Positions 3 to 24,666 of a stretch of 33,812 bases of DNA are shown piece by piece. The stretch's first letter is position 1. Every line of letters starts with the position of its first letter. Where the stretch lies: the IMG/VR virus record IMGVR_UViG_3300000062_000468. One strand, 5' to 3'. The DNA is from a virus. The notes under the pieces are model-generated. The model was given only the letters and a program-made list of their open reading frames with translations, was not told the DNA's origin and ran no database searches. A program made the position numbers and the translations under genes.

Positions 3-482
3 CTTGAAAATTTCAAAGGACTAATGAAAGAACCAGAGTTTAAAACGATTAAACTATCTGAAATATTTGAGAAATATTGTGAGTGCGTTGCATCAAATGT
101 AAACACAAGTAATTTAGAGACAGTTTGTGAAGATGGAGAGCCATATTATGAACATGTCAGCGCAACATTGGATATTAATTGCGAGAGTAGAAAGTGGTTT
201 TCATCAAGCTCAGAGGAGTGCATTGTAACCTTAAATTGTGATGAAGATCCTGATTTGAATTGTGAAATGAAACTTTATAGAAATGAGTCAGATAGAACAT
301 GGTGCATTTTGAAGTATTGTGGAAGTGGAAGTGTTGATATTAACACACTTAGATATATGAATGGCTTTGAAGTATTCATGCATATGCTTGAGAGAGCATT
401 TATAAGGATTGAACTTGACACCCATGGAGAATGTTATCGTGATATTGAACCAGAAGAAAAACCAGAATGGGATTTAAATTAA
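3..482 (+). CDS. Hypothetical phage protein, probably 5'-truncated by the window edge
   Basis: Frame is open from base 3 through ATG 24 to TAA 480-482; acidic. Confidence 0.75.
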   Translation, partial: LENFKGLMKEPEFKTIKLSEIFEKYCECVASNVNTSNLETVCEDGEPYYEHVSATLDINCESRKWFSSSSEECIVTLNCDEDPDLNCEMKLYRNESDRTWCILKYCGSGSVDINTLRYMNGFEVFMHMLERAFIRIELDTHGECYRDIEPEEKPEWDLN

Positions 483-503
483 GACCAAATTCATATTCTA
501 CGG
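482..503 (+). repeat. Junction site J1 AGACCAAA-ttcata-TTCTACGG
   Basis: AA-N6-TTYTACGG family member between stop 482 and SD GGAGGTG. Confidence 0.85.
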
Positions 504-525
504 CAAGTATTGGAGGTGTGATTTA

Positions 526-741
526 ATGTTTAGATTTCTTAAAAGATTAAGTTGTAAACATGAGGATGAAGTGTGCTTAACAAATTTACATGGTGATATG
601 ATTGACATGTTTAACACATCGCCCCAAAAGATATATAGAAGTGTGTGGCAGTGTCAAGACTGCGGTAGGGTTCGACGAAGTGAATATTTGAATAAGAATT
701 GCAACATAGTTAATTTTTGGATAAAAAGAGAAAGACAATGA
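526..741 (+). CDS. Small hypothetical protein with Cys/His residues (CKH...CQDCG), possibly Zn-binding
   Basis: SD GGAGGTG at 512-518; 71 aa. Confidence 0.8.
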   Translation: MFRFLKRLSCKHEDEVCLTNLHGDMIDMFNTSPQKIYRSVWQCQDCGRVRRSEYLNKNCNIVNFWIKRERQ

Positions 742-747
742 AATGTA

Positions 748-769
748 CCATGAATTTGCAGTTCTACGG
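748..769 (+). repeat. Junction site J2 CCATGAAT-ttgcag-TTCTACGG, preceded by an orphan left arm CAATGAAA at 736-743
   Basis: Aligns with the family; the stop TGA 739-741 lies in the orphan arm. Confidence 0.8.
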
Positions 770-790
770 AGAAAGGGTGATAAATATTAA

Positions 791-1183
791 ATGAGAGATA
801 TAACAATTAGCAGAGTAACAGAAGAACAAGCTGTAATCATAAAGAAGTTACATGATGTATTAAAAGAAGATGGTGGTATTGGAAGATTCTCGGACGGATA
901 TCATACCTTCAATGAGCTATATCATCACAGGGCTGTCCTATTTAGTGTGATATGTAAGGAATTTGTACATTTAGCATGGAAATCAAGACAGCATCACGAT
1001 GGAAGTATGTTTAAAGGAATGTTTATAGTTGGTATTAATACACCAGATGGTCAAGCCACATATCATTATGATATAGAGCCATATTGGGATATGTTCGATG
1101 TTCCAGAATATGATTATGCGCCAGAATGGGATGGACATACAGCAGAACAAGCTATAGAGAGAATTGAAAGGTTAAAAGAATAA
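791..1183 (+). CDS. WDGH-domain phage protein
   Basis: SDGYHTFNELYHHR...WKS..HHDG...GQATYHY...WDGHT motifs. Confidence 0.8.
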   Translation: MRDITISRVTEEQAVIIKKLHDVLKEDGGIGRFSDGYHTFNELYHHRAVLFSVICKEFVHLAWKSRQHHDGSMFKGMFIVGINTPDGQATYHYDIEPYWDMFDVPEYDYAPEWDGHTAEQAIERIERLKE

Positions 1184-1185
1184 CC

Positions 1186-1207
1186 AGACAGAACGACGAT
1201 TTTACGG
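1186..1207 (+). repeat. Junction site J3 AGACAGAA-cgacga-TTTTACGG
   Basis: Between stop 1183 and SD AAGGAG. Confidence 0.85.
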
Positions 1208-1223
1208 CAAAGGAGACAAACGG

Positions 1224-1550
1224 ATGATTTTTACAAATGGGTTAATACAAGAAGTGATGACGGGTTATATTGCAGATGAAATAGGTAGTACATATGATTT
1301 ATGTCCAAAAGGGATGACAGATGAGGAAGATGATGAATTTCAAAAAGAATTAAGCGAAAGGACTGTTGATAAAATTATAGATTTTGCAAATGGTGTATTA
1401 ACAGATAATCACAACTGGATGCTTGATGAAATAAAAGATAAGGCTATTGAAATTCACGAACAAGAAGTATCGGCACTATACCGCTGGCAAGATTGCAGCT
1501 CATGCAGCTCATGCGAGTATTATTATGACACTTGCCGAACAAAACACTGA
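1224..1550 (+). CDS. Hypothetical acidic protein; C-terminal tail overlaps the Pth2-like ORF out of frame
   Basis: SD AAGGAG upstream; 108 aa. Confidence 0.75.
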   Translation: MIFTNGLIQEVMTGYIADEIGSTYDLCPKGMTDEEDDEFQKELSERTVDKIIDFANGVLTDNHNWMLDEIKDKAIEIHEQEVSALYRWQDCSSCSSCEYYYDTCRTKH

Positions 1551-1764
1551 GAGGTTTAAAGATTGGTACGATAATGGGAATATGCAACGAAAGATTATAT
1601 TAAAAGCAAAAGAAAAGGATTTAGAAAAGTTGGAAAAGAAATATTATTCTGTTAGAGATAGAGGCTTCTATGAGACAGAAGAGGGAACTTTGGTGGCTGT
1701 ATCTTTAGGGATTATGACTAGAGAAGAAGCTAAACCGATTGTGAAGAGATTTCAACTTTTGTAG
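1447..1764 (+). CDS. Peptidyl-tRNA hydrolase Pth2-like protein, possibly N-terminally truncated
   Basis: GKIAAHAAHAS, QRKIILKA and VRDRG...GTLVAVSLG resemble Pth2 motifs; TTG start with weak SD; 104-nt overlap with the upstream ORF. Confidence 0.7.
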   Translation: MKFTNKKYRHYTAGKIAAHAAHASIIMTLAEQNTERFKDWYDNGNMQRKIILKAKEKDLEKLEKKYYSVRDRGFYETEEGTLVAVSLGIMTREEAKPIVKRFQLL

Positions 1765-22831: not shown

Positions 22832-22847
22832 AACACGGTTTCTACGG
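22826..22847 (+). repeat. Junction site J13 CAATAGAA-cacggt-TTCTACGG
   Basis: Contains stop TAG 22829-22831; closest site to the consensus. Confidence 0.88.
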
Positions 22848-22873
22848 TGAATTTTAGAAAAGGAGATAATCTA

Positions 22874-23476
22874 ATGGGATGTGATATACATACAAGAGTT
22901 GAATATTTTACGACAGTAAATGGGGAACAAGCATGGTTTGATGGCGACCATTATGTGAGAAATAAATACTTTGATGGTAAAGATGAATGGGAAGACGAAC
23001 TTACAGTCGTAGATATTTATAATGGCAGAAATTATGCTTTGTTTTCTACATTGGCTGGAGTAAGAAATTATGGTGATACAGAGATAATAGATGAACCACG
23101 AGGAATACCATCTGACGCTAATAAATTTATAAAAGCAGATTATGAAAGATGGGGATGTGATGCACATACACCTAGTTGGTTCACCTTGAAGGAATTGATA
23201 GATTATCAAGAGGCTGAACCAGTAGTTAAGTATTCAGGAATGATTAGTCCGGAAGCCAGCGTCAATTTAGACAATGGTATATATCCTGAAGAGTGGTGTC
23301 AAGGAACGAGTATTAAGACATATATTCGTAGAGAATGGGAAGAAAAGTCTGAAGTGTTAGTACCATTAATTGATAGTTTGAAGGCTAGATGTAAAGAATT
23401 ATTTTATCTATGGGATGATGAGAGAGTTTTAGAATTTGTAAATAAAATCAGAGTGGTGTTTTGGTTTGATAATTAA
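22874..23476 (+). CDS. Hypothetical phage protein (MGCDIH...RNYALF..LAGVRN...PRGIP...HTPSW...FWFDN)
   Basis: SD AAGGAG before ATG 22874. Confidence 0.85.
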   Translation: MGCDIHTRVEYFTTVNGEQAWFDGDHYVRNKYFDGKDEWEDELTVVDIYNGRNYALFSTLAGVRNYGDTEIIDEPRGIPSDANKFIKADYERWGCDAHTPSWFTLKELIDYQEAEPVVKYSGMISPEASVNLDNGIYPEEWCQGTSIKTYIRREWEEKSEVLVPLIDSLKARCKELFYLWDDERVLEFVNKIRVVFWFDN

Positions 23477-23479
23477 TAC

Positions 23480-23501
23480 TGATAGAAGCATGGTTTGGTT
23501 G
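23480..23501 (+). repeat. Junction site J14 TGATAGAA-gcatgg-TTTGGTTG
   Basis: Starts 3 bp after stop 23476. Confidence 0.7.
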
Positions 23502-23546
23502 CCAACATATATAGTAAAACAGCGCCAAAGTAGAAAGTAGGTAGTA

Positions 23547-23870
23547 ATGAAAATAGAAGATATAAAAGTAGAAAAAATTGATAGTATAATCGCCGAAAAC
23601 CCTGACGGAACATTAGAGTTTAGCATGGATAATTCACATGATACAACACTTTCTCAAGAGTCAGAATACGTTTATAGAAACGGCAAAACAATAAATGAAA
23701 CATTGTGGCAAACTTTGTATTTTGCTAGACAGAAAGAAAAGGCAGCCATGGCAGATATGATAAGAGCTAGAGAAGATGGCGATAGTAAACTTGTTTATAC
23801 GAATAGAGTGTTTTATGCAGCCTATTTGGACATACGTCTTTATATAGAAAGTTTACTAGATGAGGAGTAA
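23547..23870 (+). CDS. Hypothetical protein
   Basis: 107-aa ORF with SD-like AGGT. Confidence 0.75.
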   Translation: MKIEDIKVEKIDSIIAENPDGTLEFSMDNSHDTTLSQESEYVYRNGKTINETLWQTLYFARQKEKAAMADMIRAREDGDSKLVYTNRVFYAAYLDIRLYIESLLDEE

Positions 23871-23877
23871 TAAAAAA

Positions 23878-24453
23878 ATGAAATATTATATTAGCGACCT
23901 ACACTTTGGACACAAGAACATTATAGCCTTTGACGGGCATAATGGTTCACGAGGGTTCGATAGTGTGGAAGAAAGAACAGAATATATTGTAAATAATTGG
24001 AACAATGTGATTGATAAGGGTGATGATGTTTATATTCTTGGCGATGTTAGTTGGACTGGCGCTGTAGCAACTGTTTCCATTTTGGAAAGACTTGAAGGGC
24101 ATAAGCATTTAATTCTAGGAAATCATGATAACAAGTTGAACAACACAGTACTTACACATTTTAAATCAGTGCAGGATTACAAGCGAGTTAAAGATGGTGA
24201 GCAGTATGTCAATCTAAGCCATTATCCACTATTTGCATACGAAGACCAGTTTAGAGGTGGCATTCATTTATATGGACATGTGCACAACACACGACAAGCG
24301 AAGTTGTATAAAGAAGCGTGTAATCAAGTGAATATTAGCACGAATTTTGAAATACCAATGGTGTGTTTTAATGTTGGCTGCATGTTAGATTATATGGATT
24401 ATACACCAAGGACATTGGATTACGTTATGAAAAACGGAGGGTTTAACGAGTAG
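23878..24453 (+). CDS. Calcineurin-like metallophosphoesterase
   Basis: SDLH, LGD, GNHD, SHYP and GHVH motifs. Confidence 0.92.
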   Translation: MKYYISDLHFGHKNIIAFDGHNGSRGFDSVEERTEYIVNNWNNVIDKGDDVYILGDVSWTGAVATVSILERLEGHKHLILGNHDNKLNNTVLTHFKSVQDYKRVKDGEQYVNLSHYPLFAYEDQFRGGIHLYGHVHNTRQAKLYKEACNQVNISTNFEIPMVCFNVGCMLDYMDYTPRTLDYVMKNGGFNE

Positions 24454-24472
24454 GTGGATAAGGAGGAAGTTT

Positions 24473-24658
24473 ATGGGTATGTTCATTGGCTACAGAAATG
24501 AATATGGTGATGGTTACGATGATGATAGAAGTATGTTTTGTAGTGGCGAAGACGAATATGAAGATGACTATGGTGATGATTATGAAAATGATTATGATGA
24601 TAGGAGCATGTTTCTTCACTACGATGATGATAATACAGAAAACCCAATAGAAATATAA
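24473..24658 (+). CDS. Very acidic, Tyr-rich repetitive peptide (61 aa)
   Basis: Strong SD AAGGAGG; 22 D/E, 8 Y, no K; YDD(D)RSMF occurs twice. Confidence 0.75.
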   Translation: MGMFIGYRNEYGDGYDDDRSMFCSGEDEYEDDYGDDYENDYDDRSMFLHYDDDNTENPIEI

Positions 24659-24666
24659 TTCCATGG
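24645..24666 (+). repeat. Junction site J15 CAATAGAA-atataa-TTCCATGG
   Basis: Stop TAA 24656-24658 lies in the spacer; left arm identical to J13; runs into SD GGAGG. Confidence 0.8.

Follow-up and report, generated by a model that had tools for sequence, protein, structure and literature searches.

A 33,812-nucleotide viral sequence (IMG/VR record IMGVR_UViG_3300000062_000468, hereafter the window) carries between its accessory genes a series of short palindromes that we call joints, and comparison with its relatives points to these joints as a dedicated gene-exchange system of the phages that harbor them, not an integron or a repressor array. The swaps seen among close relatives support the joints as recombination-type sites bounding exchangeable blocks of one to five genes, and we think it likely that their spacers act as addresses, such that a protein would bind the arms and crossovers between sites with identical spacers would swap the blocks slot by slot. 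The window covers the right-hand end of a large temperate phage; walking leftwards along the near-identical contig ENA ERZ27245261 yielded 101 kb. Since homologues of the YonO RNA polymerase, YonG, YorH and MrpR are encoded within these 101 kb, the prophage can be assigned by its gene content to the SPbeta-like phages.

Each joint is a symmetric, degenerate 8-6-8 palindrome, whose 8-bp arms (roughly CCRTARAA and its reverse complement) hold the information while the spacer holds about 0 bits. Fitting the motif de novo favors a 6-bp gap, with a log-likelihood (LL) of 113 against 15–48 for other gaps. When a symmetric matrix is derived from 24 copies lying beyond the limits of the window, which were themselves found with a window matrix so that the test is only partly independent, 13 of the 15 copies listed in a preliminary description of this DNA rank within the top 16 of 33,791 positions, and the window holds 13 hits of at least 12 bits compared with 1.2 ± 1.1 in Markov shuffles. 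The remaining two, at 6576 and 19139, belong to a different element (see below). An AA/AT-N6-TT core lies at, or at most 7 bp from, a stop codon at all 15 coordinates. The early arm holds about 41 copies in all and, using a rough caller of open reading frames (ORFs), joints occupy 35 of 95 accessory junctions and none of the 21 in the core. The coupling to stop codons and the absence from junctions of the replication core, both noted in the preliminary description, are borne out. Two further features that it stressed carry no weight: a shared orientation says little because the arms are near-symmetric, several upstream copies even scoring higher on the reverse strand, and the fact that all spacers differ is expected, as chance predicts only 0.05 identical pairs among 15. 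A pair of joints separated by only 9 bp forms an empty slot (L360:6469-6521), and two strong site-like matches within the nrdD coding sequence (window 30535-30556 and 28154-28175) may be chance occurrences or cryptic joints.

First, relatives that are 96–100% identical reveal where blocks begin and end. These were retrieved by exact-protein look-ups; searches with RecD or dUTPase found no close relatives. Of 22 swap edges, 18 fall at joints, most of them between −2 and +6 bp relative to the spacer, which gives P = 2e-5 against a null of random accessory junctions (0.37) and 0.002 by a conservative count, the edges not all being independent events. At site 3676, the window, L081/L217, L082 and L219 display all four combinations of left and right flanks over 15 shared bases, thereby demonstrating reassortment at this joint, and farther upstream breakpoints occur at seven more spacers, two of them with three alleles each. 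The sequence shared between exchange partners amounts to only 6–15 bp, and in three cases identity begins at spacer base 1. Assembly chimeras are unlikely, given that assemblers normally work with k-mers longer than these stretches and that identical junctions were recovered from different samples. The alignment of related prophages therefore bears out the proposal of the preliminary description that the sites bound cassettes, albeit of one to five genes rather than one to four. In one instance the joint lies within an ORF (L360:20036 vs L361:19439), where a swap yields chimeric proteins (123 and 125 aa) that agree at the N-terminus but differ at the C-terminus.

Second, the spacer is conserved far beyond its surroundings. 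In L083, which is about 80% identical in shared genes, six spacers are kept in order with 35 of 36 bases unchanged, compared with 64 of 106 four-fold sites and 41 of 72 outer-arm bases (P ~3e-7 for spacers vs neutral sites), and two intervening blocks are unrelated to those of the window. A deletion in L083 produced one of these six as a hybrid: it joins a cryptic in-gene copy at 22923 with the genuine joint of the same spacer and lies between two 12-bp direct repeats; excluding this spacer leaves 29 of 30. An independent pair of genomes with TGAAA arms (G021/G028) likewise retains ordered spacers between unrelated flanks. Blocks common to relatives always occupy the same slot in the same order, and nearly all swaps join identical spacers. 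Because spacers and order are both kept, exchange would almost always require identical spacers, as in the pdif modules discussed below and unlike integrons. Mismatch may be tolerated occasionally: a 7.7-kb NAD-salvage block between the spacers TAGTAA and TAGACA is cleanly missing from L218, whose junction falls within the TAG common to both spacers. This block (L217:945-8670) has joints at both ends and encodes an isochorismatase, a phosphoribosyltransferase (PRTase), a NAPRTase/NAMPT-like protein, NadE, PnuC and a NadR-like protein, resembling NAD-reconstitution counter-defence cargo.

That indel is among the few observations suited to the integron-like capture envisaged by the preliminary description, in which blocks would be excised as circles and reinserted at any joint whatever its spacer by a recombinase tolerant of non-identical spacers. 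It is joined by a right flank that recurs at two slots having the last three spacer bases in common, and by a weak similarity of adjacent spacers (p 0.01–0.05 in the window phage and G011, but not in four other genomes). What the array does share with integrons is its row-like layout of small co-oriented genes, with ORFs terminating in the recombination site. Yet integrons insert at a single attI and possess folded attC sites and IntI, whereas the joints follow spacer identity and keep their order, with one mismatched indel in place of spacer-independent reordering. In seven joints examined for attC-type single-strand hairpins, folding did not exceed that of shuffled sequences (z −1.0 to +1.1), and the best score against the IntI model TIGR02249 is 20 bits vs a cutoff of 265 across the ~101 kb of prophage covered. 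These comparisons support neither a general tolerance nor the integron likeness, and we consider integron-like capture highly improbable.

Another possibility is that the joints serve the Sak4 annealing protein of the phage, or RecA of the host, as microhomologies, with an arm-bound protein merely opening or protecting the DNA. A Sak4-like gene is present in the replication core (Table 1), the L083 deletion lies between direct repeats, and some exchanges finish in ordinary gene homology (24676-24738). A precedent exists in the PeSLs of T4-type phages, repeats in plastic regions where modules shuffle by recombination between repeats, but these are promoter-terminator cassettes that recombine as homologous repeats, whereas the joints are 22 bp long with a slot-specific center and no stem-loop (PMC2839356). 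Moreover, homology-driven exchange predicts that the whole repeat should be alike and not its middle alone, yet the partners share just 6–15 bp and their outer arms differ to the extent given above, and annealing has no need of inverted arms held at a constant distance of 6 bp. Stretches of 6–15 bp are short for annealing proteins. Taken together, these points make an origin of the swaps in annealing unlikely.

Considering that the prophage encodes a catalytically dead homologue of MrpR, might the joints instead be operators or stoperators for this protein or another dimer, with swaps clustering at them since each block carries a regulatory site? A palindrome with a free center would suit a dimeric protein, and a few matches lie within genes (30535, 28154). 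Such a role offers no reason, however, for slot-specific conservation of the spacer, and no single block carries a complete joint, each being divided between two; promoter enrichment of joints was looked for in 1-7000 and none was found. MrpR (SroF) binds the known operator of this phage group, SPBRE, which is a promoter motif of fixed sequence, and SPbeta has a junction palindrome in addition to this separate motif (PMC10516654). As a monomer, MrpR reads the 24-bp box, covering 24 of the 26 bp of its SPbeta site (10.1101/2025.11.27.690993), while the joints sit at stop codons, leave their central 6 bp free and do not resemble a long fixed promoter motif read along its whole length. The operator alternative that the preliminary description had raised is accordingly weakened, and we regard it as very unlikely.

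The SPbeta record itself (55000-104000, L364) holds 16 TAAAA-N6-TTTTA palindromes that are distinct from SPBRE and in many cases occupy gene junctions. In SPbeta, G011 and G009 these share the architecture, position and ordered spacers of the joints, differing in that the arms of the window phage are longer, more degenerate and equipped with outer C/G bases, and in that its breakpoints are resolved in near-identical genomes. A literature search of incomplete coverage found no published description of these joints. Among described systems, the pdif/dif modules of Acinetobacter Rep_3 plasmids, acted on by XerC/XerD, are comparable (PMC13141974, PMC6449649): there too, accessory modules lie between sites of two arms and a 6-bp spacer with an inner AA-N6-TT core, and single modules are replaced between identical or near-identical spacers, just as modules are replaced here between joints of identical spacer. 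The joints differ in residing in a temperate phage, numbering about 40 per genome, overlapping stop codons and having candidate enzymes only. Their 8-bp arms are symmetric and degenerate, without distinct 11-bp XerC and XerD halves or C/D alternation of orientation, and are unlike the XerD arm of PMC13141974 Table 1.

How, then, might spacer-addressed exchange operate? The arms would serve as protein-binding half-sites that move together with the flanking gene block, and the 6-bp spacer as the strand-exchange region and the address. In a cell harboring two related phage genomes, a crossover could occur between sites of the same spacer, and a double crossover would replace all DNA between two matching addresses. 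Such slot-by-slot swapping would preserve gene order, the differing spacers within one genome would limit self-deletion, and rare crossovers at partly matching spacers could create or remove slots. Tyrosine recombinases such as Xer and Cre act on inverted arms around a central region that must match between partners, and from the inverted arms of the joints and a 6-bp region identical between partners we therefore infer a site-specific, tyrosine-recombinase-type exchange acting in trans. At pdif, spacer identity between partners is likewise required (PMC13141974).

The candidate enzymes include a 343-aa XerD-like protein adjoining yonG, whose R-K-H-R-W-Y set is intact and whose family numbers more than 4,000 proteins; a 240-aa protein at the YopP position that consists of the catalytic domain only (R-K-H-R-Q-Y); the prophage integrase; and the MrpR homologue, which is catalytically dead. 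A host Xer protein may also be considered. The XerD-like gene is near-universal among 14 genomes and not confined to motif-rich phages; in the same genomes arm type follows the type of the YopP-position protein, although this is confounded with clade. A joint 3′ of the XerD-like gene was rejected as evidence for the enzyme, being also a terminator-like hairpin and not conserved beside homologues. Six phage tRNA genes occupy L384:15766-19313, four of them immediately 5′ of the XerD-like gene.

Several observations weigh against spacer-addressed exchange or its enzymes. Four of the 22 edges fall off the joints, either close to the end of a contig or at or within homologous genes, and not all edges are independent events. 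The XerD-like family also occurs in G010, G017 and c-st, where little or no motif was detected, and is replaced within the TGAAA-arm clade. Finally, whereas Xer arms measure 11 bp and Cre arms 13, those of the joints are degenerate and only 8 bp long.

The two listed copies at 6576 and 19139 that are not joints represent the 5′ strand and loop of a separate repeated element, consisting of a hairpin with a variable stem and a constant UUUGGCGR loop, followed 11–21 nt downstream by an unpaired AAACGAAUGACUAA-type box. A site at 2172, added as a joint by the first matrix, was rejected as another copy. In total there are six or seven, all on the coding strand and several of them 5′ of major operons. 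An Rfam search of the element gave no match; it is possibly a nut-like antitermination or RNA-binding signal.

The replication core of the window (6772-19141) is followed by nucleotide genes, the integrase and a 25-bp att-type repeat (32751-32775). The closest annotated RecD match is that of Clostridium phage c-st (44%), and genome-level matches are clostridial metagenome-assembled genomes (MAGs), the prophage being from gut. PADLOC returned no match on the window cargo. The nrdD gene (window 28961-29793) is interrupted by an HNH ORF (29123-29659), probably within a self-splicing intron, and the interruption is missing in L083. A reverse transcriptase gene with template-like repeats, together with a hypervariable C-terminal patch that differs between L360 and L361 (L356:7634-9250; L360:3621-4388), makes up a probable diversity-generating retroelement. 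Smaller differences comprise a one-base insertion at window 20278 relative to L164/L165, located 5′ of the Dcm start called there, and an in-frame 21-bp duplication (17524-17544) within recD of ERZ27245261.

Table 1. Joints, exchangeable blocks and other features, in window coordinates unless a contig is named
Feature	Position	Strand	Basis or detail
Joint, spacer TTCATA; no swap seen	482..503		matrix rank 10
Joint, spacer TTGCAG; no swap seen	748..769		matrix rank 6
Joint, spacer CGACGA; L218 has another right block	1186..1207		identity stops 1202, 3 bp beyond spacer
Joint, spacer TAATGG; no swap seen	2023..2044		matrix rank 13
Joint, spacer AGATTA; both sides swapped	2722..2743		L081 identity stops 2738 (3 bp beyond spacer); L082 identity starts 2728
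Exchangeable block, 65-aa and 232-aa ORFs; five unrelated ORFs instead in L081/L219	2744..3675	+	relative alignment
Joint, spacer TGTAGA; four left/right combinations	3676..3697		L082 identity stops 3691; L219 starts 3677
Exchangeable block, radical-SAM ORF and three ORFs; single 50-aa ORF in L081/L082	3698..5334	+	relative alignment
Joint, spacer TCCCTC; left block replaced	5335..5356		L081 identity resumes 5341, 2 bp ahead of spacer
Not a joint (listed earlier as 6576); hairpin with UUUGGCGA loop and downstream box	6586..6621	+	matrix rank 129
Sak4-like ssDNA-annealing protein	7992..9101	+	phrog_124, E 7e-29
Not a joint (listed earlier as 19139); hairpin-plus-box element	19148..19189	+	matrix rank 284
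Joint, spacer TCACAA; L083 left side replaced	20128..20149		identity starts at spacer base 1
Joint, spacer GATTGA; L083 retains joint, unrelated block to right	21712..21733		L083 comparison
Joint, spacer ACATGA (L083: ACAGGA); both flanking blocks unrelated	22123..22144		L083 comparison
Joint, spacer CACGGT; L083 left block replaced	22826..22847		L083 comparison
Cryptic in-gene copy of 23480 core, spacer GCATGG; L083 deletion runs from here into 23480 block	22923..22944		alignment
Joint, spacer GCATGG	23480..23501		matrix rank 7; L083 comparison
Joint, spacer ATATAA; L164 right arm and gene start replaced	24645..24666		identity stops 24660, 2 bp beyond spacer
Prophage tyrosine integrase; less likely enzyme candidate	31356..32660	+	PF00589; adjoins att repeat
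Hairpin-box element, copies	2181-2219, 6586-6621, 19148-19189; L365:9862-9918; L384:8678-8735; L356:5604-5660	coding strand	

Phage mosaicism is usually explained either by selection acting on the products of random illegitimate joining or by homologous recombination of a relaxed kind. That modules might be separated by dedicated linker sites was proposed long ago and has, to our knowledge, gained little direct support. The breakpoints, the reassortment and the conservation of spacers together argue for purpose-built joints across a large phage group that includes the model phage SPbeta, and the idea can therefore be tested in Bacillus subtilis. Going further, we lean slightly toward the view that a tyrosine recombinase encoded by the SPbeta-like phages themselves serves addressed, order-preserving exchange at about 40 sites per genome, through which co-infecting phages would trade accessory and counter-defence blocks and half-matched crossovers would make new slots. 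Exchange of this kind would account for the turnover of cargo such as the NAD-salvage block without scrambled operons, and could provide a recombinase with many orthogonal spacer addresses.

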